Below are positions 1 through 19,393 of a stretch of 19,393 bases of DNA, piece after piece. A program made the translations under genes and the position numbers. Under the pieces are notes generated by a model. It did no database searches. It saw only the letters and a program-made list of their open reading frames with translations, and had not been told where the DNA came from. Within the stretch, counting starts at the first letter, position 1. The number at the start of each line of letters is the position of its first letter. This stretch comes from an archaeon (GTDB taxonomy: Archaea > Iainarchaeota > Iainarchaeia > Iainarchaeales > JAAZKV01), in assembly GCA_036170245.1 (NCBI GenBank), contig JAVHOV010000006.1, forward strand, positions 1-19,393. The letters run 5' to 3'.

Positions 1-602
1 AATTATTAAATCTTCAAGATGTTGATGCATCAATTGACGGAACAGGATTTTCAAACACTAACCCAAGTCATTATTATCAGAAACGTATTGACGGTAAAGA
101 GGTCAAAAACTATACAAAAACAGTGTTTTTGACCGATAATAAAACCAAATTGATTTTGAATCTAAAAACAACAACTGATCATTCGCATGAAACAAATTAT
201 TTTAAACAAACAGTTTCTGAAGTTGCAGATTGTTTGAAAATGATTCTTGCAGACAAAGGTTACGATTCGACGTCAAACAGAAAATTTTGTTGGAAACAAA
301 ATATCGAAGTTCATATTCCTTTTAGAAAATGGGGTGAATCAAGAATGCAAGAATATGGGACGCCTTCTATACGCAAAATGCATGAAAAGAAATTTAGTAA
401 AATTAAGTACAATCAACGTTCACTTATCGAGTCTGTGAATTCTGCTATCAAACAAACCCTCGGAGGGTTTGTTAGAGCTCGCAGTGCGAGCAATCAACAA
501 AAAACAGTAACAATCAAAGCACTAGCATACAACATCGAACACATCGGACGAATCATAAAAATTAAGCTTTGGATACAAACCAAATAGGATTTCTACAGAA
601 CC
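1..602 (+). mobile_element. IS5-family insertion sequence, right-hand part (left end outside window)
   Basis: DDE transposase ORF is open from the window edge to 587. It is followed immediately by GGATTTCTACAGAACC (587-602), which resembles right terminal inverted repeats of archaeal IS5-type elements (from recall; left IR not visible). Confidence 0.75.
3..587 (+). CDS. IS5-family DDE transposase, 5'-truncated by window
   Basis: Frame is open upstream of the ORF-track start (LLNLQDVDASIDGTGFSNTNPSHYY...). DDE motifs IDGTG, ADKGYD and YNQRSLIESVNSAIK. Confidence 0.9.
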   Translation, partial: LLNLQDVDASIDGTGFSNTNPSHYYQKRIDGKEVKNYTKTVFLTDNKTKLILNLKTTTDHSHETNYFKQTVSEVADCLKMILADKGYDSTSNRKFCWKQNIEVHIPFRKWGESRMQEYGTPSIRKMHEKKFSKIKYNQRSLIESVNSAIKQTLGGFVRARSASNQQKTVTIKALAYNIEHIGRIIKIKLWIQTK

Positions 603-650
603 ATGCATAATAAAATAATTAAATACAAAGAAACATAACATATTTTCATA

Positions 651-2432: not shown

Positions 2433-2539
2433 CTATTTATAAGTAACCTCTTACGCAAGTATATTTGGAAACACTAAAGGGAATTATTTTTAGCCAAAAA
2501 TATTCTCAAAAAAGTATTTCCACACTTGAGGTGAAAAGG

Positions 2540-3496: not shown

Positions 3497-3521
3497 AAAA
3501 AATCCAAATAAACTATTTAGG

Positions 3522-3551
3522 GCCTGCTGATTTAGCAGGCTTTTATTTTTT
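3522..3551 (+). terminator. Hairpin plus T-tract after radA
   Basis: GCCTGCT-gattt-AGCAGGC followed by TTTTATTTTTT. Confidence 0.65.
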
Positions 3552-3571
3552 AACTAAATTTGGTGTTAAAA

Positions 3572-3835
3572 ATGTACAAAATTGATTTTATAGATGAATG
3601 GGACAGACACTTTAAAAAATTTGATAAAAACATCCAGCAAATAATAATTAAAAAAATAGAAAAACAAACCGAAGGAACAAAAACAAGACACTTAAAATTA
3701 GGTATTGACTTTTATGTAGTTGAATTAGGACAATACAGAATAGCAATAAAAATTGAAGAAGAAAAAAGAATTAAAGAAATTTGGTTTGTGGGAAACCACA
3801 AGCAATATGAAAAATGGTACAAAAGCTTCTTTTGA
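3572..3835 (+). CDS. RelE/ParE-superfamily toxin-like protein
   Basis: 87 aa with RelE-type pattern MYKIDF...FKKFDKNIQQIIIKKIEK...GQYRIAIKI...IWFVGNHKQYE. ATG 3572 has GGTG upstream. Confidence 0.75.
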   Translation: MYKIDFIDEWDRHFKKFDKNIQQIIIKKIEKQTEGTKTRHLKLGIDFYVVELGQYRIAIKIEEEKRIKEIWFVGNHKQYEKWYKSFF

Positions 3836-3877
3836 AAGCTTTATATATTTTTTGTATAAAAAACATATGTGATAAAA

Positions 3878-4144
3878 ATGGATACTTTAGTCAACATAAA
3901 CGGCGTTCCCGAAACAGTATTAAATCTGCTAATGGAAAGAGGATATTTCAAAACAAAAGCTGAAGTAATACGTGCAGGAATAATTGAACTTGGAAACAAA
4001 TATGGAATGGATTTGAAAACTCCTGAGGATTTAGAGATGATGCTTGTAGCACTAAGAATAAAAAAAGAAGAGAAGGAAATGAAGAAAAAAGGAAAAAAGG
4101 TTTTAAGCTTAGAGCAAGTAAAGAAAAAATATAATTTAAAATAA
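3878..4144 (+). CDS. Ribbon-helix-helix (CopG/ParD-like) putative antitoxin
   Basis: beta-helix-helix pattern TLVNI...LNLLMERGYFKTKAEVIRAGI and a C-terminal LSLEQVKKKY segment typical of RelB-type antitoxins. Lies next to the toxin and has its own TATA-like TTTATATA at 3840-3847. Confidence 0.7.
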   Translation: MDTLVNINGVPETVLNLLMERGYFKTKAEVIRAGIIELGNKYGMDLKTPEDLEMMLVALRIKKEEKEMKKKGKKVLSLEQVKKKYNLK

Positions 4145-4152
4145 AAAAATAA

Positions 4153-5295
<1,143 letters not shown>

Positions 5296-5397
5296 TTAAA
5301 TGGGGTGAAAAGGATATTTAATTCTACTTTGAAAGAATAAAAAGCAAGAATAAAACAAAACTAAGGGATTTAAGCTTTTTCTAATAAGAATTAAGTT

Positions 5398-5663
<266 letters not shown>

Positions 5664-5811
5664 ATAAAAACAACCAAAACCAGCCATTCTTATTCAAATC
5701 GGCAAAATAAGCCATTATAATCCAAATTAGAAAGAGCTAATTTTTCGTTAAAAAACAAAAGGTTTTTATATTCAAAAAACGTTCAATTAACACCGAAAGG
5801 TGACTTAAAAA

Positions 5812-5988
5812 ATGGTTTTTGAAAAGAAAATGTCAGTAAAAGATTTAATTGAACAAATGAGAGAAGAACTAAAAAAAGAGCAGGACGAAATAGCACCAAC
5901 AAGAGCAGCTAGAACACAAAAGAAAAAACCGGCTAAAAAAGTTGCTGCTAAAAAAGCAAAAACAGTTAAGAAAAAGAAAAGAAAATGA
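5812..5988 (+). CDS. Small basic protein (58 aa) with Lys/Ala-rich histone-H1-like tail; missing from ORF track
   Basis: MVFEKKMSVKDLIEQMREELKKEQDEIAPTRAARTQKKKPAKKVAAKKAKTVKKKKRK. SD AGGTGA at 5798-5803 and TATA-like TTTTTATA at about 5763. Confidence 0.75.
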   Translation: MVFEKKMSVKDLIEQMREELKKEQDEIAPTRAARTQKKKPAKKVAAKKAKTVKKKKRK

Positions 5989-6017
5989 AAAACCTTTTTT
6001 AGATTTTTCATTTTTTT
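5982..6017. terminator. Inverted repeat between convergent genes
   Basis: AAAATGAAAAA (5982-5992) pairs with TTTTTCATTTT (6004-6014), followed by a T-run. Confidence 0.45.
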
Positions 6018-6041
6018 AAAAATGTTGTTTTTGAAAAAGAC

Positions 6042-6371
6042 TTACTCCTTTTCTTTCTTAGTCTCCTTTTTAATTTCCTTCTCAGTTTCCTTAATTAATT
6101 TAGATAAAACTTCAGAAACTACTTCAAACAACTTCCACCCTTCTGCACTAGCATAGAATTTCTTTACACCTATTGTAAGAGTACCGTGAATTTCATGCTG
6201 AACTCTTAACCCACCCTTAGCATAATCTTTCAAAGCAAGCTGCAACTTTGTGTTTGTTCCAACTTTCTTAAAAAATCTCTCAAGGGACTTCTCAAAAAAA
6301 GCTAAATCAACCTCATCAATTTTATCAAATTTCACTAATGTTACATTAGGAAAATTCTCTAGTACAACCAT
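6042..6371 (-). CDS. HPF/RaiA (S30EA)-fold protein, putative ribosome hibernation factor
   Basis: 109 aa, beta-alpha-beta-beta-beta-alpha pattern ending HEIHGTL...FYASAEGWKLFEVVSEVLSKLIKE, matching the HPF C-terminal signature. SD GGAGG at 6379-6383. Confidence 0.6.
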   Translation of the reverse strand: MVVLENFPNVTLVKFDKIDEVDLAFFEKSLERFFKKVGTNTKLQLALKDYAKGGLRVQHEIHGTLTIGVKKFYASAEGWKLFEVVSEVLSKLIKETEKEIKKETKKEKE

Positions 6372-6448
6372 ACAAAAACCTCCAAAAAATACTCTTGATA
6401 AAATAAGTACTACCTAACTCATTAAAAAAGAATTGACTCATATCCATA

Positions 6449-8209
6449 ATGATGCTTATTGACGAAAAAAATGAAAATTACCCTTTTCTTTGGGAACAAC
6501 TGGAAAAACACACCCCAAAAGAATATGAAAGAATAAAAAGAGTGTGTGAAACTCTTTTGAAAAAAGATTTGCCAAAAAGCACAATAGAAGGAATCATACT
6601 AAAAACAATACTAAAAGAAAAAGAACTATCTGCTGAAGAAAAACAAAAATTTAGTTCAGAAGCAAACACTATTGCGGAAAACATGATACAAATAGAAGAA
6701 GTAATTCAAAGAAACTATTCAAAAATTCCAAGCGAAACAATAACCTCAATTATTCTTACTCTTCCAGAAGATTTCCAACCAATAATTGCAGAAATTGAAG
6801 AGACAACTGATGCTTTATTCAATAAAGAAAAAATGAGTTATGAAAACAAATATGCTCAAAAAGCAAGCGAAATATGGCTTCCATTAGCCGTTAAAATTGG
6901 AATGAGCGACTGCGAATGGAAAATACAGGATTTTGCATTTAAAATAATTACCCCCCAAGGTTTTGACAAAATAAAAAAACTTGTAAACAAAACAAGAGAA
7001 GAAAGAGAAGCACTTATTGAAGAAGTAAGAAAAGAAATACAAAAACTTCTTGAAGGAAAAATAAACGCTACAATTGTTGGAAGACCAAAAAGCTTCAAAT
7101 CAATTTTTGATAAACTCAAAAAAACAACATTTGAAAAAATGCATGATATTTATGGGATAAGAATAATCTGTGACAAAGAAAAAGACTGCTATGAAGCACT
7201 CGGGCTTGTCCACTCAAAATATGAAATAATACAAGAAGCTTTTGATGATTATATTTCAAAACCAAAACCAGACGGATACAAAAGCATACACACTGCAGTA
7301 CGAAGAAAAAATGATGTAATTGAGGTGCAAATCAGAACCTGGGCACACCACTTAAGAATCACGGGAGAATCATACTGGACTTACAAAAAAGTTTCAAAAG
7401 ATAATATGTTTGAAAAAGAATTAAGCTGGGAAAGACAATTACTTGAATGGCAAAAAGCTACTGGAAAAGAAAGAACAAACAAAAAAGTGGTTGGAAATAA
7501 ATTATTTATTTTTACTCCAAAAAATGATGCAATTGCTCTCCCTAAAGGCGCAACGGTAATTGATTTTGCTTTTGCAGTACACACGGATGTGGGAAAAAAA
7601 GCGGAGAAAGCAAAAATTAACGGGCAATTTGCACCGCTTGAAACAAAACTAACCAACTTAGACAAAGTAGAAATTATTACTAATGAAAAACCCCAAATGA
7701 AAAAGAATTGGTTGCAAAACGCAGTAACTGAAAAAGCTAAAGGAAAAATTAAAACTTTCTTTGGAATGATTAAAAAGAAAGAAAAAAAAGAAACTAAACT
7801 TGATACAAAAAATACTAAAAAAATAAAAATGGCTGAATGCTGCCACCCCCTGCCCGGAGAAGATGTAATTGGGGTTAAAACAACAAAAAGAAAAATAATT
7901 GTACACAAAAAAGATTGTGTTAATATTTCAAAAATAAGCAAAGACAAATTAGTAAACATTGACTTTGAAAGAGAAAAAGGAGAAACAGGAGTAAGAGTTA
8001 AAGCAATTGACAGACCGGGGCTTTTAGGAGAAATCTTAGAAGAAATCAAAAATTCTCAAGCAACCCTCAAAAACACTAATTTCAAAATAAAAAAGAACGG
8101 ATATGCTGACGCAATCTTTATTTTAGAAATCAAAAGTGCTCAAAAACTTGAGAAACTAATTGAAAAAATTGCAGATATTCCTTCAGTGCAGTTAGCTGAA
8201 AGAATTTAA
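6449..8209 (+). CDS. Long RelA/SpoT homolog: degenerate HD, (p)ppGpp synthetase, TGS, ZFD, ACT/RRM
   Basis: Synthetase motifs GRPKS, DIYGIRII, DDYISKPKPDGYKSIHT, EVQIRT. TGS FTPK...LPKGATVIDFAFAVHTDVG. ZFD AECCHPLPGE...HKKDC. ACT DRPGLLGEI. No HDxxED hydrolase motif. Confidence 0.93.
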   Translation: MMLIDEKNENYPFLWEQLEKHTPKEYERIKRVCETLLKKDLPKSTIEGIILKTILKEKELSAEEKQKFSSEANTIAENMIQIEEVIQRNYSKIPSETITSIILTLPEDFQPIIAEIEETTDALFNKEKMSYENKYAQKASEIWLPLAVKIGMSDCEWKIQDFAFKIITPQGFDKIKKLVNKTREEREALIEEVRKEIQKLLEGKINATIVGRPKSFKSIFDKLKKTTFEKMHDIYGIRIICDKEKDCYEALGLVHSKYEIIQEAFDDYISKPKPDGYKSIHTAVRRKNDVIEVQIRTWAHHLRITGESYWTYKKVSKDNMFEKELSWERQLLEWQKATGKERTNKKVVGNKLFIFTPKNDAIALPKGATVIDFAFAVHTDVGKKAEKAKINGQFAPLETKLTNLDKVEIITNEKPQMKKNWLQNAVTEKAKGKIKTFFGMIKKKEKKETKLDTKNTKKIKMAECCHPLPGEDVIGVKTTKRKIIVHKKDCVNISKISKDKLVNIDFEREKGETGVRVKAIDRPGLLGEILEEIKNSQATLKNTNFKIKKNGYADAIFILEIKSAQKLEKLIEKIADIPSVQLAERI

Positions 8210-8277
8210 TTTCTTAAAAACATCTAAAACGTATTTATTTAAACCATTTTAACACAATCCTAAAAGGAAGTGATTGG

Positions 8278-9444
8278 ATGAAACCTATACTACAAATAAT
8301 TATGTTTGCTACACTCATAGCATTAATTGGAACAGCTTTTGCTGCATTCCCAGAAGTAACCCAAGTGAGTTACACACCAAGTCCTGCAATACCAGGAACA
8401 ACAATAACTTTTTTGGTACAGTTAGAAAATAAAGATTCAACAGCACAAAAAGGAGTAACTGTTAGTTTAGAAGACACATACCCTTTTACTGTAAAATCAA
8501 CCGAAACTGAATCAAACCCAAGAGTTGTTGGAAATATTGATGCTTTTGGTAAGGCTTTAATTCAATTCACTCTATATGTTGATTCAACAGCAGAAAACAA
8601 AACATATTCAATCCCTGTTATAATAAAAGTGCAAGGGGACGAAAGCGGGAAGAAAACAAACCACAACATACTTGTTAGTGGAAAAAATCCAATTGTAAAA
8701 ATAGTTTCAGTAACTGAAGAAAAATTACTTCCTGGAGAAGAAAAAGAAATTAACTTTACTTTACAAAATGTAGGGACAAGCCCAGCAAATTATGTTGTTC
8801 TTGAAATGCAAGAAGACAGAACAATTACTGCAACAGGCGCAATAGTTGAAAGAGATGTTACTTCACTAGGGGCAGCTGCAACTAATGTAGGAACAATAAA
8901 TCCGGGTGAAACAAAAATAGCCACATTAAAAGTTAGTGTAAGCAATACTGCAATAATAAAAAATTATACCCTTCCAATAATGATATCCTATAATGATCAA
9001 ACAGGAACAAGAACTTCAACTATTTCTTATGTAGGATTAAAGGTATTTGCTACAGCAGACCTTGATGCTACAATAAAGGAAAATCTGAACGGTTCAATAA
9101 CTGTAGAACTATTCAACAAAGGCTTAGGAAAAGCTGAATTTACTTTAGTAGAACTTGAAGCTACAGGGGCAACTATAGACAAACCAAAACAATTCATTGG
9201 AACTTTAGGGCCAAATGATGTAGACACTGTAAAAACAAACATAAACTACACACAAACAGATGCTACTCTAAAAGTAAAAATAAGTTACTTGGATTCTGAT
9301 GCAAAACAAAAAGTAAAAGAAATAATCCTAAACCCAAAAGGACAAATAGCAACACAAGAAGGGTCTAATTGGTTACTAATTCTTGTAGTACTAGTTGTAA
9401 TTGGGGCAGGAGTATACAACTTTGTTTTAAAGAAAAGAAAATAA
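8278..9444 (+). CDS. Secreted, membrane-anchored Ig-like (COG1361/CARDB-like, S-layer-domain) protein
   Basis: Signal peptide ending AFA, repeated PG.....F.L.N.G beta-sandwich motifs, C-terminal TM helix plus basic tail KKRK. Confidence 0.75.
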   Translation: MKPILQIIMFATLIALIGTAFAAFPEVTQVSYTPSPAIPGTTITFLVQLENKDSTAQKGVTVSLEDTYPFTVKSTETESNPRVVGNIDAFGKALIQFTLYVDSTAENKTYSIPVIIKVQGDESGKKTNHNILVSGKNPIVKIVSVTEEKLLPGEEKEINFTLQNVGTSPANYVVLEMQEDRTITATGAIVERDVTSLGAAATNVGTINPGETKIATLKVSVSNTAIIKNYTLPIMISYNDQTGTRTSTISYVGLKVFATADLDATIKENLNGSITVELFNKGLGKAEFTLVELEATGATIDKPKQFIGTLGPNDVDTVKTNINYTQTDATLKVKISYLDSDAKQKVKEIILNPKGQIATQEGSNWLLILVVLVVIGAGVYNFVLKKRK

Positions 9445-9457
9445 TTAATGTTAAATA

Positions 9458-9493
9458 AAATGTTGTGGTTTTATACCCCAACATTTCTTTTTT
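9458..9493. terminator. Hairpin between convergent genes
   Basis: AAATGTTG-TGGT...ACC-C-CAACATTT followed by a T-tract. Confidence 0.5.
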
Positions 9494-9831
9494 TAATCCT
9501 TCAATTTTAATTTCCAGCCAGCAGAGCGCACCAATGTTTTTGAAACAGGCTTTGAAACAAAAGGGATTTTGGCAGAAAAAAATTTTCTTGCAACCATTAA
9601 TTTTCTTGCAGCACTTTTTCTTTTTCTTGAAATGACCCTGACAATCGACTTGCTGTCAGGCTCGGTTGAGTTATACTCCCCAACAAAAAGCCTTTTTGGA
9701 TTTGCCAAACGATTAACCAACTTCAAACGAGTCTTTGCACTTCTTCCCGCAAAAAAAGAATCTCCAAATTCAATACGTGCTCTTGCCATTCTATTATGAT
9801 GAAGTCTTGCCTTAGATGCAACTAGTTTCAC
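9493..9831 (-). CDS. Highly basic hypothetical protein
   Basis: 112-aa Arg/Lys-rich ORF with GTG start 14 bp downstream of the KaiC-like gene; fills the intergenic space. Confidence 0.55.
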   Translation of the reverse strand: MKLVASKARLHHNRMARARIEFGDSFFAGRSAKTRLKLVNRLANPKRLFVGEYNSTEPDSKSIVRVISRKRKSAARKLMVARKFFSAKIPFVSKPVSKTLVRSAGWKLKLKD

Positions 9832-9845
9832 AAAAAGTCACTTTT

Positions 9846-10580
9846 TTATAATTTGTAATCATCTTCAACTTTTAAAATTTTTATTCCAGAATCTGTAATC
9901 TGCAAAGGATGCAAATCTTCATTATGTTTTGTTGCTCTCATCTTTCTTATGTGAAGAGTTCTGTTTGACTGAGTACCAATACCCATATAGTGAAGAACAA
10001 TTACTCCATCAGCAACAAATTCTTCAACACCATACTTTCCTAACTGCTTAGAATCTTCATTAATTTCAGTAGTAAACATTGTTGTAACACCAGCTCTTGC
10101 CAAAAGATAAATCATCTTCAAAACTGCCTTTCTAACATCCTGTTCATTATCTAAATTCAACCCTAAAGCAGGAATTGAATCAATAACAACACGCTTAGCT
10201 TTAATTTTCTTAATAGCCCTCATTAATTCCAACAATAACTTATCAAGATCAAACCCGGTTGCTGGCAGAGAAAATTCTTCATCACTTGGAATACCAAGTT
10301 TAGCCATTGTCCCATCAACAACCTTAATCATGCTAGAGTCTTCTAAAGCCCTCAAGTTCCAGCCAAATCTTAACATATCTTCTCTAATCAAATCAGGTCT
10401 TTCATCAAGAGTCAAATAAACTCCAGGCTCATTCATCTTTGCACCATTAACTAAAAATTGAGTAGCAAAAATAGTTTTACCAGTACCAGTTCCCCCTGAA
10501 ATAAGAAAAGCTCTTCCTTCAGGCAAGCCACCTTCAACTAACTCATCAAATCCTGTAATACCTGTTCTAACTCTATTCAT
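9846..10580 (-). CDS. Single-domain KaiC-like RecA-superfamily ATPase
   Basis: RVRTGITGFDEL..GGLP, Walker A GGTGTGKT, RVVIDS, EEFVADGVI, RTLHIRKMRAT. Confidence 0.9.
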   Translation of the reverse strand: MNRVRTGITGFDELVEGGLPEGRAFLISGGTGTGKTIFATQFLVNGAKMNEPGVYLTLDERPDLIREDMLRFGWNLRALEDSSMIKVVDGTMAKLGIPSDEEFSLPATGFDLDKLLLELMRAIKKIKAKRVVIDSIPALGLNLDNEQDVRKAVLKMIYLLARAGVTTMFTTEINEDSKQLGKYGVEEFVADGVIVLHYMGIGTQSNRTLHIRKMRATKHNEDLHPLQITDSGIKILKVEDDYKL

Positions 10581-10648
10581 AAAAATCAACTACTAAAATA
10601 GACTTTTGTGGATTATAAATCTTTTCACAAGACAAGAAAAAGAAAAAA

Positions 10649-10722
10649 TGGGACTGGCGAGATTTGAACTCGCGACACCATGGTCTTCAGCCATGTGCTC
10701 TCCCAGGCTGAGCTACAGTCCC
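10649..10722 (-). tRNA. tRNA-Phe(GAA)
   Basis: Acceptor GGGACTG/CAGTCCC, anticodon arm CATGG-CTGAAGA-CCATG, T loop TTCAAAT; CCA not encoded. Confidence 0.95.
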
Positions 10723-10739
10723 CTGGTAAACAAAATCTT

Positions 10740-11390
10740 TCAAGAAAAGCTTTTTAAGGGGGAGCTTAAGAGAGCTTTTGCACGAGCACTTTTATAAGGA
10801 TTTGAAAACCCAATTTCATCCATCCATTTATGCAAATTACCCTTACCATACAAACAAACTTTATAGGTTCTATGCTTTGATAATTTACTAAAATAAGACC
10901 TTATTTTAGTTACTCTAAAACCTTTAATTAAAAGAGTGTTTTGAACTTGTTCTGCAAGAATAATACTAGAAGTAGTTAATTCTAAAGAAGGATATTTTTC
11001 AACACCAGGCTTTTTTGAACAAAAAACACTTCCATCTGTGTCAAATAATCCTTTTAAAACAAACTTTAATAACTCCAAGTCAGACAAAATGAATTCAGGG
11101 ATTTTTGCATTTATTGCTTTTCCTGCCCCTGCAAAGAAATTAAATTCATTAATTAACCTCAAACAATACTCTTTAGAATAAACAGAAATTCTTACACCAT
11201 TAGAACGAAATTTAGAAAACACTGTTTTATTACAAACAATTTGAATAATTGAACACAAATATTCAAAATATGCTTTATCTGTAACAGGATTTCCAGTCAA
11301 TCCAAAAATATACTTTTGACTTGCTAATGAAACAAACCCATCACCAAGTAAAGCACCTAATAACTCACATTCTTCTTTAGAAATATACAT
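10740..11390 (-). CDS. Free-standing two-motif LAGLIDADG endonuclease-like protein
   Basis: Motifs LLGALLGDG and VLKGLFDTDGSV, C-terminal IGFSNPYK; no intein splicing motifs. Confidence 0.85.
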   Translation of the reverse strand: MYISKEECELLGALLGDGFVSLASQKYIFGLTGNPVTDKAYFEYLCSIIQIVCNKTVFSKFRSNGVRISVYSKEYCLRLINEFNFFAGAGKAINAKIPEFILSDLELLKFVLKGLFDTDGSVFCSKKPGVEKYPSLELTTSSIILAEQVQNTLLIKGFRVTKIRSYFSKLSKHRTYKVCLYGKGNLHKWMDEIGFSNPYKSARAKALLSSPLKSFS

Positions 11391-11474
11391 TACAAAAATA
11401 TTTTTTGTTAAAAATAAAAACCCTTGGAAACTAATTTGCCGGCGTAAATTTTAGTTTTTGAAGACTAAAGAAAA

Positions 11475-12379
11475 TTACTGCCCTTTTGTTATAACTATAA
11501 TATTACCTAAAAGAATCAAAAATCCTCCAATAATAACCGGAAAGGTTAATGGCTGAGCTAAAAAAATAACTGAAAGAACAACTCCAGAAACTGGTTCAAG
11601 CAACATTAAAATTCCTGCAGTTATTGTTGAAACTCTTTTTGCCCCAGCATAATAAAGCAAGTGAGCCCCAATAACAGGAACCAGACTAAACAAAATAATT
11701 AAAACAAAAACAAACAAAGGAAAATCAAGTGAAAGACCTACTACATTTGGAAATGGCGCAAAAAGAACCATTAAAGGATAAACAAAAATATACACTAATG
11801 CTCCAACTCCTGAACCAAAAAAGAAAATCCATAATGGAGAAAGCTTCCTTTTGCTTGCAACACTACCAACAACAATCCAAAGTGATAAAAAATTCCTCCA
11901 AACAAAGCAAAGATTACCCCAAGCAAACTACTTGAAGAAGTTAGTTCAAAAGGATTTACTAAAAAAACAACTCCAATCAAAACCAAAATCCCAGCAATAA
12001 TCTGGTACTTTGAAACACTCTCTTTTAGAAAAAAATGACTAATCAAAATTGTCCATAATGGCTGAGCACACAAAAGCAAAACTACAACTGCAACTGAAGC
12101 TCCAAAAACAACTCCCCCAAACTGACAAAGAACAACACACTCAGAAACAATTGCATAAAAAATTAAAATTTTTAAATTTTCTTTTACTCCTTTAAATCCA
12201 ATTTTAATCAAAAAAGGAACAACAAACAAAGAAGCTAACACACAAGGAATTGTTGAAATTTGAAAAAGAGACAAACCTAAACTAGAAAAAACACTTCCGC
12301 CAAAAACAATTAACCCACAAAGAATCCCACTCATTGCTAAAAACAAAAACCCTTTTGTTTTCTCATTAATGTTTTGCAT
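11475..12379 (-). pseudogene. EamA/DMT-family transporter split by a 1-nt frameshift
   Basis: Both parts carry EamA motifs (QPLWTILISHFFLKE; LLEPVSGVVLSVIFL). Adding one base to the A6 run at 11887-11892 gives a continuous GGIFLSLWIVVGSVASKRK...GVGALVYIFVYP. Confidence 0.8.
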
Positions 12380-12457
12380 AAAATAAAGAAGAACACTACA
12401 AAATATAATACTAAGGCAAAGAATAATTTAAATTAAAAAATAATTTAAAATGAAAAT

Positions 12458-12642
12458 TAAAACTAGAATAAAAATAAGCGAGCCCGTAGGGAATCTAACG
12501 CCGCAACCCCTTTCCTAACCAAGCAAAGCTTTTGCTTTGCGGGCCACGCAAAAGTCAATACTTTTGCTAGGAGGTGTTGCATACCCAAACTAAATAAAAC
12601 TAAAACTATAATAAAAATAAGCGAGCCCGTAGGGAATCGAAC
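12458..12642. repeat. 42-bp direct repeat (40/42) containing the tRNA-Lys 3' end, copies at 12458-12499 and 12601-12642
   Basis: TAAAACTA(G/T)AATAAAAATAAGCGAGCCCGTAGGGAATC(T/G)AAC. Confidence 0.85.
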
Positions 12643-12694
12643 CCTAGACACCCAGATTAAGAGTCTGGTGCTCTACCGACTGAGCTACGGGCCC
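12622..12694 (-). tRNA. tRNA-Lys(CTT)
   Basis: Acceptor GGGCCCG/CGGGCTC, anticodon arm CCAGA-CTCTTAA-TCTGG. Confidence 0.95.
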
Positions 12695-12764
12695 TGAATT
12701 ACGGTAATTACTAGTCTTTCTTTAGTAATTACTTTTCAATACTTTTTGAAAAAGTAAATGCAAG

Positions 12765-12837
12765 CGAGCCCGTAGGGAATCGAACCCTAGACACCTGGAT
12801 TAAAAGTCCAGTGCTCTACCGACTGAGCTACGGGCCC
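12765..12837 (-). tRNA. tRNA-Lys(TTT)
   Basis: Same body as the CTT copy, anticodon arm CTGGA-CTTTTAA-TCCAG. Confidence 0.95.
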
Positions 12838-12913
12838 ACCAATTGCATTCCTTTAAAAGAAATTGCCCTGAAAAGATTTTTAAAGATGCGTAAAAAGCAA
12901 GAAAGGCGAAAAA

Positions 12914-13462
12914 ATGGGTAAAAAGGATTTTGTAGTAATAAGATATGGACATAGAGATGTTAGAGATTATAGAGTAACAAGCCACTGTGCATTAGTTTCA
13001 AGAGCATTTGGAGCAAGCAAAATAATTGTCTGCGAGTCAAAAGACCCTATTGCAGAAAACACCCTTAAAGGGGTAACTGAAAGATGGGGGGGAAGCTTCA
13101 AAGTTGAATTTATAGAGAACTGGAAAGATGCAATTGAACAACTAAAAAAGAAAGGATACACAACAGTACACCTAACCATGTACGGAATTCCTATTCAAGA
13201 GATTGATGAAAAAATAAGAACTCTTGATAAAGTTGCAGTACTAATCGGATCACAAAAAGTTGAACGAGAAGTATATGATACGGTAGATTATAATATTTCA
13301 GTAACAAATCAACCGCATAGTGAAATAGCTGCACTGGCAGTTTTCCTTGATCGAGTACAAAAAGGAGAGGAATTAAACAAAGATTTTAAAGGATCACAAA
13401 TACAAATAATTCCACAAGAAAGAGGAAAAAAAGTAATTAGCACAGATAAAAGAAAAAAATAA
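12914..13462 (+). CDS. trm56: tRNA (cytidine(56)-2'-O)-methyltransferase
   Basis: RYGHR..RDYRVTSHCALVSRAFGA, HLTMYG, GSQKV, NQPHSEIAALAVFLDR. Confidence 0.95.
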   Translation: MGKKDFVVIRYGHRDVRDYRVTSHCALVSRAFGASKIIVCESKDPIAENTLKGVTERWGGSFKVEFIENWKDAIEQLKKKGYTTVHLTMYGIPIQEIDEKIRTLDKVAVLIGSQKVEREVYDTVDYNISVTNQPHSEIAALAVFLDRVQKGEELNKDFKGSQIQIIPQERGKKVISTDKRKK

Positions 13463-13507
13463 AAGAATTCTATAGAGTTTAAAAACACTTAGTAAAGGGA
13501 ATAAATT

Positions 13508-14041
13508 ATGCCTTCAAAATCATTAACTGACCTGGTGCTTGTAAAAGAGTTGCTTGACACTATTGGTGGAGAAGACGCAATTACATTAGTTAAATTATGT
13601 GAAAAAAAAAGGTCTATGACAACTGATGAAGAATTGTCAAAAAAGATGAACAAAAAAGTAACAGAAGTGAGGGCAACATTAAACAAATTACATTTTAGAG
13701 GAATTGCATGTTACCAGAAAGCAAGGAACCAAAAAACAGGCTGGTATAATTATACTTGGGAAATAAAGAAAGATAGAATTGCTGATATTATAGAAGAACA
13801 ACAAAAGGAAAACCTTGAAAAATTGAACAAAAAGATGAATTTAGAAGCAGATTATAGTTTATTTGATTGTGCAAAGTGCAATCATAGAGAAGTGTTTGAA
13901 GTAGCGGCAGAATATAACTTTTTGTGCCCAATATGTGGGGGAAGCATGACTTCCGCTAATGACCCAAACAGACAAAAGGAATTGACAGGAAAAATAAAGA
14001 AGATAGAACTAGAAATAGAACTTCTAAAGAAAATGAAGTAG
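13508..14041 (+). CDS. tfe: Transcription factor E alpha subunit
   Basis: Winged helix TDEELSKK...EVRATLNKL, GWYNYTW, Zn ribbon CAKC...FLCPICG; adjacent to trm56 as in many archaea. Confidence 0.93.
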   Translation: MPSKSLTDLVLVKELLDTIGGEDAITLVKLCEKKRSMTTDEELSKKMNKKVTEVRATLNKLHFRGIACYQKARNQKTGWYNYTWEIKKDRIADIIEEQQKENLEKLNKKMNLEADYSLFDCAKCNHREVFEVAAEYNFLCPICGGSMTSANDPNRQKELTGKIKKIELEIELLKKMK

Positions 14042-14201
14042 AAACACTAAAACCTGGACACATTTTATAGTTAGTAGTTGAAAAGAAAGAAGATTGGAAC
14101 AATCTTTTTTAACAAAAATAAAGATAAAAAACAAATAAAACTATAAAAAAACCATTAAAAATGGTTTTTAAGTTATAATAAGGTTAATTAGCCTTAAAAC
14201 T

Positions 14202-14276
14202 AGCGGGGTAGAGCAGCCTGGAGTGCTCGCCGGGCTCATAACCCGGAGGTCGGAGGTTCAAATCCTCTCCCCGCTA
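14202..14276 (+). tRNA. Initiator tRNA-Met(CAT)
   Basis: A1-U72 pair (AGCGGGG/CCCCGCT) and three consecutive G-C pairs closing the anticodon stem CCGGG-CTCATAA-CCCGG. Confidence 0.95.
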
Positions 14277-14607
14277 TAGTGAGTTTTAACCTATTTTTTA
14301 GTTAAATTATCTTAAAAACAACCCCTTTAGTTCCACCACTAATATAATCTAATAAATACGACAACTGACTTAATTTTGCTGTTTTTTTATTCACTCTAAA
14401 AACCCTTTTTTTTAGCCATTTAAAAAACCCCTAAAAAGGGGCTAAAAATGAACTCTCACAACAGAGCAAAAACAACACAACTTCACATACCCCCTAAAAA
14501 GAACTAAATCAACATAGCTCACTTGTTGTAAAATTGACTAAAATTACACAAAACATATTAAAAAACAAAAAAACTAAAAGCCACAAAATTAAAAACAAAC
14601 AAACTAA

Positions 14608-14724
14608 GTAATTACAAGTAATTACACGTAATGAGGTGTAATGAGGATAAGCACAACTCATTACCGTAATGTTTTTAAATCATTACGGTCATTATATTAA
14701 TGACGAGAAAAAAGTGGTAATGAT
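14608..14724. repeat. Cluster of GTAAT(T/G)A(C/G/T) boxes
   Basis: Direct boxes at 14608, 14618 (GTAATTAC), 14628, 14638 (GTAATGAG) at an exact 10-bp period. Inverted boxes at 14657 (CTCATTAC) and 14679 (ATCATTAC). Further boxes at 14666 and 14717, the last overlapping the downstream start codon. Confidence 0.85.
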
Positions 14725-15154
14725 GGGAATTATAGAAACAATCAAACAAATACTTGGAATCAAGCAAAAAGTAGCCCAAGCAAGTGCTCAAACTATCCAA
14801 GTGAGTGAGATTAAGAAAGGGATAGAAGTAAGGTCAATTTGGGACTTCTTACAGTTTAATGAACATACACAAGCTTTTCACCTAGCTAGCGTCATACGCT
14901 TTGATGAATGGGTTACAATGGATGAAGTGAGAAGAAGGATATTTGACCTTTTTCAAGTAGATTATGAAAATGAACGCTCACTTTACCCGTATCTTAAGAC
15001 AATGGTTGATGTAGGACTTATTGAGAGCAATAATATTGGCGGAAAACGCAAATGGAGAAAGAAAGATCTACTAATCAAAATTGAAAAAGAGATAAAAGAA
15101 GAAGAAAAACAAACTCAAACAGAAAAAGAAGCTACAATCCAAGCCCAAAACTAA
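14720..15154 (+). CDS. Winged-helix (PadR/AspA-like) DNA-binding protein
   Basis: VTMDEVRRRI...NERSLYPYLKTMVDVGLIES..GGKRKWR resembles the PadR-type recognition helix and wing (SLYP.L..L...GLI). ATG 14720 preferred over 14669. Confidence 0.7.
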   Translation: MMGIIETIKQILGIKQKVAQASAQTIQVSEIKKGIEVRSIWDFLQFNEHTQAFHLASVIRFDEWVTMDEVRRRIFDLFQVDYENERSLYPYLKTMVDVGLIESNNIGGKRKWRKKDLLIKIEKEIKEEEKQTQTEKEATIQAQN

Positions 15155-15293
15155 TTAAGAGCACAAAAATGCTTCTTTTTTTCATCTTTTTAATTAAAAC
15201 AGATAAAATAAAGGTTCCATTTAACTTCATTTCTTGGACATATTTTGAAATTGATTAACAAAGTTATTTTGCCAATTTAAGCCATTATATGTA

Positions 15294-15386
15294 GTAATTA
15301 CCAAGTTTTGATAAATAAAGAAGGACTTATTTTACAGTAATTACCTTAAAAAGAGTTAAAATTTAAGTTGAAAAAAAAGTAATTAC
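15294..15386. repeat. Three GTAATTAC palindromes spaced 43 and 42 bp
   Basis: Exact copies at 15294, 15337 and 15379. Confidence 0.85.
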
Positions 15387-15392
15387 TCACTT

Positions 15393-15983
15393 TTAAAGTT
15401 GAGCAGGATTTTTTAGTTTCTTAAATAACTCATAGAACTCAATTAAACTCTGTGATTGCTGGTAAGTTTGCTTAAACCATTCAAGATCCACTATCCCTTG
15501 AGCTTCTTTTACTAAGGCTGCTTTATAACCCGAGTCTGCTCCACTTTGAGTTGCTACTCTTTTCATCTCATTAAGAAGTAAGGCTTTACCCTCAACTCCT
15601 TCAACAAATTTTCTGTTTAAAAGAGTCTCAATTGAAACAGCTACTTCTTTTTCAGGAAGATCCTTTTCATTCAAGAAATAAGTACACTTCCAGTCCCCTT
15701 TTTCCTGCCAATGATGGGTTGGATTCTTACCTGTTTTAAAAAATTCTTGTAAAGTTTGAAATGCTACTTGGGGTATTATTACACAATTTTTACCTGGTTG
15801 AATATAAGGGTAATTTGAAAGAATACCTTCTCGGTGATAATGGTAGGTTTTTCCAGATCCTTTATAGACTGCTTGAGTATATCCATAAATTCCGCGAAAA
15901 AGTTTTTGATAAGTATAAGAAGAATGTTTGGTTGAATCAGGAAGAATAAATCGGTATTGAACAAAATATGCTTTTATTGACAT
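15393..15983 (-). CDS. Hypothetical protein, N-terminal region possibly Cas2-like ferredoxin fold
   Basis: Clean 196-aa ORF with G-rich SD. The pattern YFVQYRF...YQKLFRGIYGY...GIL...KNCVIIP...LQEFFK suggests a Cas2/VapD-like beta-alpha-beta-beta-alpha-beta fold (by-eye inference). Confidence 0.6.
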   Translation of the reverse strand: MSIKAYFVQYRFILPDSTKHSSYTYQKLFRGIYGYTQAVYKGSGKTYHYHREGILSNYPYIQPGKNCVIIPQVAFQTLQEFFKTGKNPTHHWQEKGDWKCTYFLNEKDLPEKEVAVSIETLLNRKFVEGVEGKALLLNEMKRVATQSGADSGYKAALVKEAQGIVDLEWFKQTYQQSQSLIEFYELFKKLKNPAQL

Positions 15984-16235
15984 TTTAACACCCACCCCAC
16001 GCTTCCATTACTACCTTATAATAATATAATAAAATATTTCTTATGTATAGTATATATACATATTGTTATTAGTTACTAATTCTTTCTTTTTCTTTTTTTA
16101 GGTAAAAGGAAAGGGTGTCCAAGAAATGAGGAGATTTTTAAGGGTTAAAAAAAGGGTTGAAAAGAGATTAAAAATTGAAAAAATAGGTTCTAAAGTTAAG
16201 GTAGGTTAATTAAAAAATGAAAGTAAGGGGAGGCC

Positions 16236-16559
16236 TTACCTTCTAGAATATTTATATCTCAATTGAGAAGCAGCAGTACTTTGTTCTTGTGCTTCTTCTT
16301 TAGGCTGTTCTGTAAAAGGTATTTCTCTGCTTGAAACAATAATAATATCCTTTACTGACTTAACATTCCTGTATGGAATGCTTTTCTCAGCCAAGATCTT
16401 CTTTGCATCTGATTTAGTTTTAACTTTCAAAGGCTCAGTAGTAATGGTTTCAAGTTTACCTTTTTCAAGGTTTATGATTATATCATACACTTTACCTTTA
16501 TACCCAGCTTCAAAGTCATAAACATCCATGCCGAAAAGTTTTGACAATCTAACGCTCAT
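16236..16559 (-). CDS. PRC-barrel protein (CdpB-like)
   Basis: LSKLFGMDVY...GKVYDIIINLEKGKL...IPYRNVKSVKDIIIV; SD GGAGG upstream. Confidence 0.85.
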   Translation of the reverse strand: MSVRLSKLFGMDVYDFEAGYKGKVYDIIINLEKGKLETITTEPLKVKTKSDAKKILAEKSIPYRNVKSVKDIIIVSSREIPFTEQPKEEAQEQSTAASQLRYKYSRR

Positions 16560-16771
16560 AAATAATCCTCCCTTAGAGTTTTTGTTACGCTAAGAAAGAC
16601 GGTGAAGTATTTAAATCTATTCCTTAAAATAAAAAAACAATCTTTAGTTTGGAAAACAAAATAACAGCGCATATACATAATTTGTTGGGTTTTTTAAGTT
16701 TTAAAATAATGTTTTTTGGACTTGACTTTTATTAAAGGAACAGTGGGGGGTAAGGGGCGGAGGTTAATTTT

Positions 16772-17722
16772 TTACAATTTATCAAGAGGACTAACAACTT
16801 TTTTGAGTTGATCATTTGCAACACTAGTATAAATTTGGGTGGTGTTTAGACTTGAGTGACCTAAAAGAGTTTGAATATATCTAATATTAGTTCCAGCTTC
16901 AAGTAAGTGAGTAGCATAAGAATGTCTTAAACAGTGGGGGGTAACATGTTTGTTTATCCCAGCATTAATCGCTGCTGCTCTTACAATTCTTTGAATTGTA
17001 TCAGTAGTGATTGGCTTTCCATTTTTTTTAGAAAAAACAAATTCTGATTGAATTTTCTTTTTTGCCAAATATTTTTTTATTCCATGAATCCACTCTTTTG
17101 AAAGAATAATAATTCTGTCTTTATTTCCTTTTCCTGCTCTAACTGTTGCAGTTCTCTCTTTAAAATTTAGTTCCTCAACTTTAATTTTAGTTACTTCACT
17201 TACTCTACACCCAGATCCATACATGAATTGCAGCATTAAGCGGTTTCTTCCAAAGTGTGTGCTTTCAAATAATTTTTTTATTTCGTCTCGAGTAAGAACT
17301 TTTGGCAAGGATTTAGCTTTTTTTGGGATTTTAATTTCTTCAAGAATTGCTTTCATATGATTTTTTTTAAACAAGTATTGCATTGCAGCATGAACCAAAG
17401 ACAAAGTTGCATTATTACAACCAACTTCTTTTTTATGGGCAAGGTAGGAAATCAGATCCTGTTTTACTAAAGCCGCAAGGGGTTTATTGATAAAATAAAT
17501 CATTTCGCGCGTGTAAATAAGATACATTTTGATTGTTTTAGAAGAATAGCCTTCAACAATAAGTTCTTGTTTTAATTGAGTTAAAATTGATTCAAAATTT
17601 GGGTTTAAAATAAGCTGATTAGTTTGTGCTTGAGTTAAAGGAATAATTTCTTTAGTGGAAGAAGGAAGGGGGAGAGTGGTGGCAATTTGTTGAGTAGGTT
17701 GTTCTGGTAGATTATCCTGCAT
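16772..17722 (-). CDS. Tyrosine recombinase, XerA/XerC-D-like
   Basis: Intact catalytic set: GCRVSE (R), GKGNKDR (K), HCLRHS (HxxR), LLGHS (H), TQIYT (Y). N-terminal core-binding domain GYSSKTIKMY. Confidence 0.92.
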   Translation of the reverse strand: MQDNLPEQPTQQIATTLPLPSSTKEIIPLTQAQTNQLILNPNFESILTQLKQELIVEGYSSKTIKMYLIYTREMIYFINKPLAALVKQDLISYLAHKKEVGCNNATLSLVHAAMQYLFKKNHMKAILEEIKIPKKAKSLPKVLTRDEIKKLFESTHFGRNRLMLQFMYGSGCRVSEVTKIKVEELNFKERTATVRAGKGNKDRIIILSKEWIHGIKKYLAKKKIQSEFVFSKKNGKPITTDTIQRIVRAAAINAGINKHVTPHCLRHSYATHLLEAGTNIRYIQTLLGHSSLNTTQIYTSVANDQLKKVVSPLDKL

Positions 17723-17840
17723 TTTAATCAGTACCTTTTAGGGGTTTTTTCTTTAAATAAGTGCTCTTTTTTTAACAAAAGTTTAATAATTTTTTTTAAA
17801 AAAGTAAGGTTTTTAAACGCAAAAGGGATAATCTTACTAT

Positions 17841-18098
17841 ATGTTAAGAAAACCACAAAAACCTCCAGAAGGAGCTAAAATGAAGGAAACTGCTGACATG
17901 GTTATGTGGCGAAAAGAGTTTGAAAAAATGAAAGTAGAAGATCATAAGAGCAAATTAAAAGAACTTGGGTTGGACGATGAAGATTTAGCTGAATTTGATG
18001 CTCTTGAAAAAGGAGAAACAACTCTTGACGCAGAACTTGGCGGCGAAGAAGTAAAAGAAGTCCCAAAGGAAGTTAAAAAACAAATAAAGAAAAAATAA
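17841..18098 (+). CDS. Small charged hypothetical protein
   Basis: 85-aa ORF, TATA-like TTTTTAAA about 25 bp upstream, coding-like composition. Confidence 0.65.
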   Translation: MLRKPQKPPEGAKMKETADMVMWRKEFEKMKVEDHKSKLKELGLDDEDLAEFDALEKGETTLDAELGGEEVKEVPKEVKKQIKKK

Positions 18099-18174
18099 TT
18101 CTGCTTTTATTTTTTAAGTAATTTTTTTGCTTAAAAAATATTTTTTTTAATTTTAAAAATTTGATTTAATTTAC

Positions 18175-19041
18175 TTATTTTTTAGTGGCTCTAATTCCAG
18201 AACTCTCTTTATGATATTTGACATTAACAAAACCAGCTTTAATTAACATTTTTTCAATAGTGGGCCAGTACTCAGTTCCTTTGGTTTTTCCAGGGTTTGG
18301 ACAGTAATGATAAAGAAGGCCCTTTGATTTTAATACTCTATAAAGTTGTGCATAAAATTCGCTTGAAAATAATTCTTTTCCAAAAGAAGTTGTTGGGGGG
18401 TCATGTAAAATTCTGTCAATTGAATTACTTTCAATTGTTTTAATTTTATCATAAACACTTCCAATTGTTAAGTTAATTTTTTTATTAGTGAACAGCTCTT
18501 CTGAAAAAGGATTATACTCCGCCATTTTCAAAACATTTTCATCTTTTTCAAAAACAATTACTTTCTCGCATTCACTTTTATTTGCTTCAATAATTGAAGT
18601 ATACCCCAAACCACAGCAGCAGTCAAGAACAATTCCTTTAATTGGTGAAATTTCTTTAACCATTAATTCAGCGCTGGTTTTTGGGCTAATAGTTTTGAAT
18701 CGGTGCATTGGAACACTTGATAGCATAATTGTGGGCCAATCTGCAGTAGGTTTAAGTTTGTAATAAAGATTAGTTTCCTCGCCAAACATTTCAATAGCAA
18801 GAACATACCCATCAACAATAGTGTAAAAAGTTTCCTCTTTTGTTTTTTTTAATTCATTAAAACTAACTTTTTCATTTCTAATTAAAGCAAATTTTTCTTC
18901 ACCATTAATTAAAATTTTTTCTTGGGTTTTTCCTAAGTCCAAACTCATCAAAAGCAAGGTTTGTCCAGGAAAAGAAGTGTTTGACTTAGCTGAAAGTATC
19001 TTTTCTGCATCCTTTTTGGTCAAAATGGCAAATTTATGCAT
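18175..19041 (-). CDS. Archaeal class I SAM-dependent methyltransferase (COG2521-like)
   Basis: SLDLG, PTIMLSSVPMHR, VLDCCCGLGYTSI, EKDENVL..AEYNPFS, ILHDPP, ELFSSEFY. Confidence 0.85.
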   Translation of the reverse strand: MHKFAILTKKDAEKILSAKSNTSFPGQTLLLMSLDLGKTQEKILINGEEKFALIRNEKVSFNELKKTKEETFYTIVDGYVLAIEMFGEETNLYYKLKPTADWPTIMLSSVPMHRFKTISPKTSAELMVKEISPIKGIVLDCCCGLGYTSIIEANKSECEKVIVFEKDENVLKMAEYNPFSEELFTNKKINLTIGSVYDKIKTIESNSIDRILHDPPTTSFGKELFSSEFYAQLYRVLKSKGLLYHYCPNPGKTKGTEYWPTIEKMLIKAGFVNVKYHKESSGIRATKK

Positions 19042-19144
19042 TATAATCAAGTATGTAGGTATGAAAAGGTTTATATATTACCTCAGCACAGGTATGTATT
19101 GGAGCTATTTTTTAAAGTTTCCTAAAGTTCAAAAAGGTGAGTCT

Positions 19145-19357
19145 ATGAGTCATATATTGCTAAAGATGGATGTAGATGAGGAACTGAGACTAAGTCTCCT
19201 TGCTCAAGAATTAAAAATGAGATCTAAGCAGCCTGAAGCCTGGACTAAAACAAAGTTTAGAAAATACGCGAACTTTGGAAGAAACAGGAATAAAACTGCA
19301 GAAGAAATCTTAAACGCAGAACCAAAAACAATGGCAAAGTCAGCTTTAAAGAAGTAA
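19145..19357 (+). CDS. Hypothetical protein (70 aa)
   Basis: ATG 19145 follows SD AGGTGA (19135-19140); TATA-like TTTATATA at about 19070. Confidence 0.55.
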   Translation: MSHILLKMDVDEELRLSLLAQELKMRSKQPEAWTKTKFRKYANFGRNRNKTAEEILNAEPKTMAKSALKK

Positions 19358-19393
19358 TATTCTTTTAGAGTTAATTGTCAATATCTTTTTAGA

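Follow-up and report, generated by a model that had tools for sequence, protein, structure and literature searches.

What does a small, predicted DNA-binding protein do when copies of a candidate binding site lie on both sides of its gene? We analysed a stretch of 19,393 nucleotides (the window) from an archaeon of the Iainarchaeota (assembly GCA_036170245.1, contig JAVHOV010000006.1, positions 1 to 19,393), in which the gene for a 144-amino-acid (aa) winged-helix protein lies among copies of an 8-bp palindrome, GTAATTAC, which we call the box. The original prediction, made from the sequence of the window, was that this protein binds the boxes, regulates its own gene and has a structural role in segregation or initiation. 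We found that the system of gene and boxes is real, is conserved through an entire order and is tied to a likely replication origin. We propose that the winged-helix protein binds the boxes, represses its own gene and tethers the origin to the membrane, a reading to which we give a probability of about 0.45.

The window contains seven exact copies of GTAATTAC, all of them intergenic and all where the original prediction had placed them (12704, 12725, 14608, 14618, 15294, 15337 and 15379), as compared to a mean of 0.31 and a maximum of 4 copies in 200 dinucleotide shuffles. The spacings given for the clusters (21, 10, 43 and 42 bp) are correct, and the variant boxes listed at 14628, 14638, 14657, 14679 and 14717 are present. 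We found two further variants, at 14688 (GTCATTAT) and 14697 (TTAATGAC); the array upstream of the gene has nine boxes with successive spacings of 10, 10, 10, 19, 22, 9, 9 and 20 bp, and the box consensus is GT[A/C]AT[T/G]AC. In the host genome (G000; 866,866 bp in 43 contigs) there are 22 GTAATTAC sites, as compared to approximately 12–31 expected from Markov models of different order, and the word is not over-represented genome-wide. Seven of the 22 lie inside 2.7 kb of this locus. Chance or a genome-wide word bias as the source of the boxes is ruled out by the shuffles, the Markov counts and the conservation of the boxes at orthologs.

We surveyed ortholog promoters at 81 loci, 79 of which have enough upstream DNA. 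An exact box is present no more than 260 bp upstream of the start in 78 of the 79, as the prediction of boxes around orthologs had it, and 57 have two or more. When up to one mismatch is allowed, there are on average 5.3 boxes per promoter, as compared to 0.33 in shuffles. Distances between pairs of boxes cluster at 9–11, 18–22, 28–32, 38–42, 49–53, 59–63 and 69–73 bp, and by our hand sum 911 of 931 pair distances fall into bins at multiples of approximately 10 bp, although the loci are related by descent and these counts are not independent. In 70 of 93 non-redundant loci a TATA-like element is flanked by boxes and the array overlaps the B recognition element (BRE) region, the TATA box and the start site; the first in-frame ATG is mostly 28–34 nt 3' of the TATA-like element. 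Because the array flanks the TATA-like element and the ATG follows at this distance, a bound protein would block its own promoter, and the predicted autoregulation fits this geometry. A sigma-70 promoter scan, a type of scan unsuited to archaea, stayed below shuffle level. Many orthologs have a separate word, CTCACT, 40–100 bp ahead of the array (the 14550–14600 region of the window); it is also present at window position 15386.

The boxes are largely confined to this locus. In the complete genome G004, it has the only cluster of three or more boxes, and in G000, G032 and G129 there are a few additional loose triplets, mostly in coding DNA. In a regulon search across four genomes, which covered 760 of the 985 kb of the main contig of G129 and, for G000, a fragmented assembly, 29–41 genes per genome had an upstream box, no second gene had upstream boxes in all four, and the winged-helix gene alone kept them in all four; for each of three other orthologous pairs, a single variant box is common to two genomes only. 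Box density per kb is 0.66 in noncoding and 0.61 in coding DNA of G000, and 0.38 and 0.24, respectively, in G004. A tandem-box pattern is found in 108 of 160 genomes with the gene, in 5 of 55 genomes without it and in 0 of 19 genomes of the sister orders. Among the tandem matches listed (41 genomes), 91 of 105 are at most 600 bp from the gene, 6 more are within 5 kb and 8 are elsewhere, a count that omits 45 listed matches from genomes for which no position of the gene was listed, as well as 151 unlisted ones. With 97 of the 105 within 5 kb, the expected concentration at one locus is borne out.

Some boxes lie outside the promoter zone, and we refer to these as satellite boxes. There are 51 of them in 23 of 95 loci, as compared to 0–9 for 15 control palindromes, and these sequence counts argue that satellite boxes are under selection, though patchy. 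The downstream spacer carries a box in 15 of 98 loci (many loci lack the spacer). Satellite boxes reappear in the distant family of G032, and a pair like the one at 12704–12732 is found approximately 2 kb upstream in several close relatives only. The boxes downstream of the gene and between the tRNA-Lys genes, on which the structural argument had leaned, are thus real; however, they are restricted to lineages and not general, while the promoter array is near-universal.

To whom does the winged-helix protein belong? Homolog searches gave 313 matches, labelled Iainarchaeota/Diapherotrites or unclassified archaea; the few records titled as other groups have a gene order identical to that of Iainarchaeota loci. 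By profile, the gene is present in 160 of 215 Iainarchaeota genomes and in 55 of the 58 high-quality ones, with one copy per genome among the matches listed, and there were 0 matches in the 19 genomes of the phylum outside the window's order. A profile scan of 1.84 billion representatives gave 39 matches (39 clusters at 50% identity). Within these searches, and judged by sequence matches, the gene is restricted to one order of the Iainarchaeota.

The AlphaFold model has a winged helix at residues 39–118 (mean predicted local distance difference test score, pLDDT, of 77.6). The best fold matches are to PadR, Fur and BlaI-type repressors (Z 8.6–9.0) and are generic, among them PadR 5dym (Z 9.0, root-mean-square deviation 1.9 over 67 aligned residues) and FurB 2o03 (Z 9.0). 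Model and matches together support the winged-helix fold that had been proposed. Foldseek found no match to the model at E 0.001 or better, a sequence search of the PDB no chain below E 0.18, and an Atlas look-up for remote homologs only leads below 0.9. The Pfam PadR family (PF03551) gives 14.2 bits as compared to a cut-off of 27, with weak matches in 78 of 91 family members (best E 8e-05), and we rejected membership because the score is under the curated cut-off, although the fold is PadR-like. We also rejected membership in the Fur family: the C-terminus consists of one strand and a charged helix with no metal-binding dimerisation domain, none of the 91 family members has a Fur Pfam match, and the family alignment has no invariant cysteine and one near-invariant histidine. 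A homodimer model of residues 28–135 scored 0.56, as compared to 0.00 for the best of three controls, and separate runs agree in at least 77% of contacts with pLDDT of at least 78. Of 30 solved homodimers, 20 pass the mark used, as does 1 of 23 single chains, and likeness to solved dimers may help a homodimer pass. The predicted interface includes the invariant residues T50, Q51, T94, V96, D97 and G99; the protein is thus predicted to be a homodimer.

The original prediction overlooked the N-terminus. Nearly all orthologs begin with an amphipathic helix of approximately 13 residues, whose hydrophobic moment is at least 0.6 in 80 of 89 orthologs (median 0.73) and whose net charge is zero or above in 88 of 89. 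For comparison, the median moment of N-termini in the G000 proteome is 0.40 and the 95th percentile is 0.64; the ortholog scan covered a longer region than this control, and the contrast is somewhat flattered. Between helix and domain there are 34 to 105 residues, depending on the ortholog (two picks at 20 look misplaced), a variation that fits the expectation for a flexible tether. The helix resembles the SepF N-terminus of G032 and also the membrane-targeting peptide of Haloferax SepF (PMC8187382). From its sequence, we infer that the helix enters the membrane.

Where on the chromosome does this locus lie? We think it likely that it is a replication origin. Skew was measured at fourfold-degenerate sites with coding-strand bias removed, replacing raw skew, in four long contigs in which cdc6 lies 47–140 kb from the locus. 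The orientation-corrected skew switches at the locus in all four, with one discordant statistic and one broad interval. The corrected minimum is at 769.8 kb in G032 (gene at 770.1–770.7 kb) and at 166.1 kb in G004 (gene at 165.3–165.8 kb), and the corrected G-C minimum in G129 is at 461.7 kb (gene at 464.4–464.9 kb). Change-point fits favour 766–772 kb in G032, 56 log units better than cdc6 (the G-C fit of this genome has only 65 genes and is uninformative), 462–464 kb for G-C in G129, 44 log units better, and 164 kb in G004 (gene at approximately 165.5 kb). In three genomes (G032, G004 and G089), T-A skew is negative before the locus and positive after it; in G089, from which 100 kb were sampled, it changes from –0.11 to +0.10, and there is no clear G-C sign change at cdc6. 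When 86 further loci were pooled, T-A was –0.30 far to the left, –0.16 near the locus on the left and +0.03 on the right (interval spans zero), and it was higher on the right side in 35 of 46 loci. In G032, genes point away from each other around 819 kb and towards each other at 356 kb, a pattern that puts the terminus near 356 kb and the locus on the origin side.

The sequence elements point the same way. An inverted pair of TAnTAgTGGAAGTGTGGGG elements, which we take to be akin to the canonical origin recognition box (ORB), is found around the PRC-barrel gene, 0.8–1.6 kb downstream of the winged-helix gene; the element is present in 81 of 93 and 76 of 83 spacers. When a matrix was built with the loci of the test genomes excluded, the pair took first and second rank in four of four genomes, and element A is a likely Orc1/Cdc6 box. 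As expected of an archaeal oriC, inverted ORB-like repeats lie around AT-rich DNA; an adjacent cdc6 gene is missing, and cdc6 is 47–174 kb from the winged-helix gene in all nine genomes with both on one contig. A shorter ORB-like form is found upstream of cdc6 in six of six loci (L001, L135–L139), and none was seen there in G032. In some genomes the spacer upstream of cdc6 also heads sepF; in G032 (G032:C1 813646–817948), sepF lies close upstream of cdc6 on the opposite strand. A palindrome, TTATGTA-N8-TACATA, lies approximately 30 bp from ORB-like element A (window 16041–16062) and is conserved in most of the orthologous spacers printed; in some it is also near xerA.

Several observations weigh against placing the origin here. 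In G129, the T-A and keto statistics favour 162 kb by more than 130 log units; in G004, the corrected interval is broad (164–270 kb) and G-C favours 486 kb; in G089, G-C runs opposite to T-A, from +0.20 to –0.09. In the pooled 86 loci, T-A is not clearly positive to the right and G-C has no trend. Raw skew is uninformative in G004, and in G032 the raw GC skew minimum is at 820.6 kb, beside cdc6; an origin in a Diapherotrite has been placed beside cdc6 as well (PMC5905446). That raw GC skew points to cdc6 in G032 while corrected skew points to the locus approximately 50 kb away bears on origin assignments in the phylum. The T-A switch of G129 lies near a long spacer with short ORB-like words (G129:C1, approximately 162–168 kb), which are shared with G000:C14 at 12679 and 12733. 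This region is possibly a second or former origin, although the full matrix gives no hit there.

Taken together, these data suggest the following mechanism. We infer from sequence that the winged-helix protein is the binder of the boxes. Homodimers would bind the phased GTAATTAC boxes before their own gene, beside the likely origin, and would stack along one face of the DNA. The stacked dimers would repress the gene and at the same time present several N-terminal helices to the membrane within 1–2 kb of the origin, so that the promoter array is likely an operator and a centromere-like site in one. Each new origin could then be held at the envelope, which would bring about segregation in cells without detectable ParB; satellite boxes within approximately 3 kb may add binding sites in some lineages. 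ParB had no match in five of five genomes (completeness 86–99% where given), ParA/MinD-type genes are unlinked to the locus in five of five, and parA, parB and segA are absent among the conserved neighbours at the 81 loci. In its most specific form, which we hold tentatively and at somewhat less than even odds, the proposal is of a minimal one-protein anchor: a winged-helix dimer, specific to the order, would form polymers on a phased operator-centromere at an orc1-distal oriC and insert its helix into the membrane. The earlier preference for a structural role over simple repression gains from the likely-origin position and from the conserved membrane-anchor-like helix; it loses from the restriction of satellite boxes to lineages.

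Other observations count against the tether. Satellite boxes are missing from 72 of 95 loci, and most boxes are at positions that a plain autorepressor would use. The joint absence of gene and boxes in the sister orders amounts to one evolutionary event. The moment of the helix in the window, 0.67, is equalled by 3.6% of G000 N-termini, and an amphipathic helix can instead bind a protein. One cluster of 5–14 boxes is small beside the nine sites over approximately 700 kb of RicO, a bacterial origin tether discussed below. The tether is predicted from sequence and models, and it comes without an identified motor or polar partner.

The neighbourhood of the gene is itself conserved: trm56, tfe, tRNA-Met, the winged-helix gene, a convergent 196-aa open reading frame (ORF), the PRC-barrel gene and xerA follow one another in this order in 69–79 of 81 loci. 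The 196-aa protein has a ferredoxin-like N-terminal domain, a helical C-terminal part and an invariant YQKLF..YGY.Q motif. It has 402 homologs, is conserved across the class and has no Pfam or NCBIfam match; its structural match is a generic ferredoxin-like one (Z 7.5 or less), with no Foldseek match at E 0.001 or better and nothing in the Atlas. A further motif, TCTTGGACA, has a second copy in the window (16116–16124) and is found mostly just past gene 3' ends, with 3–6 non-coding copies per genome; we rejected it as an origin element because it is dispersed at gene ends genome-wide.

Features of the locus, with window coordinates
Feature	Position	Strand	Basis or conservation
tRNA-Lys(CTT), directly downstream (minus strand) of two satellite boxes	12621..12694	-	ARAGORN
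Two satellite GTAATTAC boxes, 21 bp apart, between tRNA-Lys genes	12704..12732	.	motif count
tRNA-Lys(TTT)	12764..12837	-	ARAGORN
aTrm56 tRNA methyltransferase	12914..13462	+	Pfam PF01994; neighbour in 70/81 loci
Transcription factor E alpha	13508..14041	+	Pfam PF02002; neighbour in 74/81 loci
tRNA-Met(CAT), upstream of winged-helix gene	14201..14277	+	ARAGORN; 82/98 loci
Promoter array, 9 boxes (14608, 14618, 14628, 14638, 14657, 14679, 14688, 14697, 14717)	14608..14724	.	
TATA-like box TTTTTAAA, boxes on either side	14672..14679	+	anchor kept in 70/93 loci
144-aa winged-helix protein gene, single-copy, predicted homodimer	14720..15154	+	
N-terminal amphipathic helix, codons 1-13, predicted membrane-targeting sequence	14720..14758	+	
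Winged-helix domain, codons 39-118, with invariant RSLYPYLKT recognition helix	14834..15073	+	
Boundary motif TCTTGGACA, separate from box system	15232..15240	+	
Three satellite GTAATTAC boxes with spacings of 43 and 42 bp, flanked by convergent 3' ends	15294..15386	.	
Conserved 196-aa protein	15393..15983	-	neighbour in 79/81 loci
ORB-like element A, consensus TAnTAgTGGAAGTGTGGGG	15993..16013	-	
AT-rich tract, 89% A+T, candidate unwinding element	16016..16080	.	
PRC-barrel protein, between two ORB-like elements	16236..16559	-	Pfam PF05239; 76/81 loci
ORB-like element B, inverted relative to A	16730..16750	+	
XerA recombinase	16772..17722	-	NCBIfam NF040815, 248 bits vs cut-off 220; 69/81 loci

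Elsewhere in the window, a truncated tRNA-Lys-like copy (GCGAGCCCGTAGGGAATC at approximately 12478) lies at 12463–12570, after both tRNA-Lys genes, and may mark an old integration site. A free-standing LAGLIDADG-type ORF (PF14528; 10740–11390) adjoins tRNA-Phe, and similar ORFs are found near tRNAs in other loci. There are also a ParE/RelE-like toxin with a probable antitoxin partner (3560–4144) and a DDE transposase fragment (123–587).

In the sister orders, the 196-aa gene and the PRC gene are kept without the winged-helix gene or box clusters, and an ORB-like element is present in most of the 12 loci read. Pilin-like genes take the place of the box-flanked gene. At five loci (L263–L266 and L271), a different small winged-helix gene adjoins the PRC gene, where xerA lies in the window. 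The two small winged-helix genes near the PRC gene in the sister orders were considered as homologs of the 144-aa gene and rejected, as their profile matches are not significant (probability 0.3% and 4%).

Which other explanations could account for the locus? The one that survives best, although we consider it rather unlikely, is that the protein is an autorepressing PadR-like transcription factor or a nucleoid protein. The boxes would then be only an operator, the helix would serve membrane sequestration, sensing or protein contact, and the nearness to the origin would reflect gene dosage or a frozen gene order. This agrees with the overlap between the array and the promoter elements (BRE region, TATA box, start site) in 70 of 93 loci, with the weak PadR matches in 78 of 91 family members, with the repressors among the best fold matches (Z 8.6–9.0) and with the lack of satellite boxes in most loci; since the whole neighbourhood is syntenic, the closeness to the origin may be inherited. 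However, a repressor of this kind would have no second conserved target in the four genomes searched, where the non-coding box density is near the coding background, and a gene that is kept in 55 of 58 good genomes needs another job if all it does is regulate itself. It also offers no explanation for the selected boxes that at least two families have in spacers between convergent genes.

It is less probable that the protein is a WhiP- or Rep-like initiator with the boxes as iterons, or an accessory regulator of origin firing, either an activator or a SeqA-like sequestering factor. A distance of 0.8–1.6 kb separates the gene from the ORB-like pair and AT-rich tract, with cdc6 far away in all nine genomes that have both on one contig, and for WhiP, whose gene adjoins oriC3, the bound repeats lie within that gene and beside it (PMC3607249). 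In contrast, the ORB and AT-rich spacers of the window have no boxes, and the sister orders retain the 196-aa gene, the PRC gene and mostly the ORB-like element without the winged-helix gene. WhiP, as far as it is described, has tandem winged helices at an oriC3 without ORBs, whereas the protein here has a single domain. An initiator leaves the amphipathic helix unexplained; a sequestering factor would explain it.

We regard it as very improbable that a different protein, such as a general Iainarchaeota regulator, binds the boxes and that the winged-helix gene is a target with an unrelated role. There is almost no variation in either the box or the recognition helix, hence no covariation signal, which leaves room for another binder; however, the boxes are confined to the winged-helix gene and are lost with it in the sister orders, and the predicted dimer suits a palindromic array. 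That the locus is the terminus, with the protein as an anchoring or occlusion factor acting with XerA, would agree with the adjacent xerA (69 of 81 loci) and the non-uniform skew polarity (G-C reversed in G089), but is extremely unlikely given the gene orientation in G032 (divergence near 819 kb, convergence at 356 kb), the negative-to-positive T-A change in three genomes and the ORB-like pair.

How does the proposed tether compare with known systems? We compared AspA, WhiP, RicO and RocS with the winged-helix protein by their descriptions, and a literature search, whose coverage left most subscription papers outside, found nothing on the box/protein system itself. In Bacillus subtilis, the ParB-family protein Noc links site-specific DNA binding to the membrane through an N-terminal amphipathic helix and has many dispersed sites; the winged-helix protein differs from it in having one box cluster. 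The closest likeness is to RicO/ricS of Staphylococcus aureus (bioRxiv 10.64898/2026.03.06.710092), where a protein with a DNA-binding domain and a terminal amphipathic helix recognises a specific motif near the origin and, in a cell whose partition system is incomplete, links the origin to the membrane. The order of the parts is reversed, however, since RicO has an N-terminal DNA-binding domain and a C-terminal helix, and ricS is an 18-bp non-palindromic sequence with nine sites over approximately 700 kb, as compared to an 8-bp palindrome in one phased promoter cluster here. No sequence relationship to RicO was seen for the winged-helix family, which comprises only 39 clusters at 50% identity. 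Of the features of such tethers, the DNA-binding domain and terminal helix are present, and the motif is confined to the origin region, in one cluster and not dispersed. RocS of Streptococcus pneumoniae is likewise described as a membrane-anchored DNA-binding protein for chromosome segregation; it differs in having a C-terminal anchor and in working with ParB, which had no match in the five genomes searched here.

In archaea, the AspA-ParB-ParA system of pNOB8 and SegAB of Sulfolobus share with the present locus a dimeric site-specific protein and palindromes upstream of its own gene, which may serve as operator and centromere; AspA itself has a winged-helix fold, and stacked AspA dimers spread in the upstream direction (PMC5120986). 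Palindromes upstream of the gene were found at 78 of 79 promoters here, and a homodimer is predicted (0.56 as compared to 0.00). The differences are that AspA/SegAB use one 23-bp palindrome, as compared to many phased 8-bp boxes, and that the available text of PMC5120986 describes no membrane helix, whereas one is predicted in the winged-helix protein. AspA is absent among the fold matches listed and no PDB chain scored below E 0.18, which leaves homology to AspA compatible with the searches; membership in AspA-ParBA, with which the original prediction had drawn a parallel, does not hold, as there is no parA, parB or segA beside the gene. WhiP at oriC3 of Sulfolobus also has a winged-helix gene beside an origin without adjacent cdc6, with repeats at its own gene (PMC3607249, PMC4010727). 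In those sources the winged helices of WhiP are in tandem and ORBs are missing from oriC3, as compared to one domain (39–118 of 144 residues), an amphipathic helix and an ORB-like pair here, and an assignment to WhiP fails on the single winged helix and on the pair, which sister orders keep although they lack the gene. The fold and an operator over the promoter are shared with PadR, Fur and BlaI-type repressors; the winged-helix protein differs from them in having no Fur metal domain, no regulon that we could find and an extra N-terminal helix.

We put it at just under even odds that the winged-helix protein works like RicO and RocS with an operator-centromere layout of the AspA/SegB type; it is not a member of AspA-ParBA, WhiP, PadR or Fur. 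Chromosome segregation in archaea, and especially in the small-genome DPANN archaea, is described as largely open (PMC5120986). The locus gives the question a definite protein, an exact 8-bp site and a place on the chromosome, all of which can be tested in vitro without culture. If the tether is true, it would represent the independent evolution, in archaea, of a counterpart to RicO and RocS and would be the first named segregation factor for DPANN archaea.

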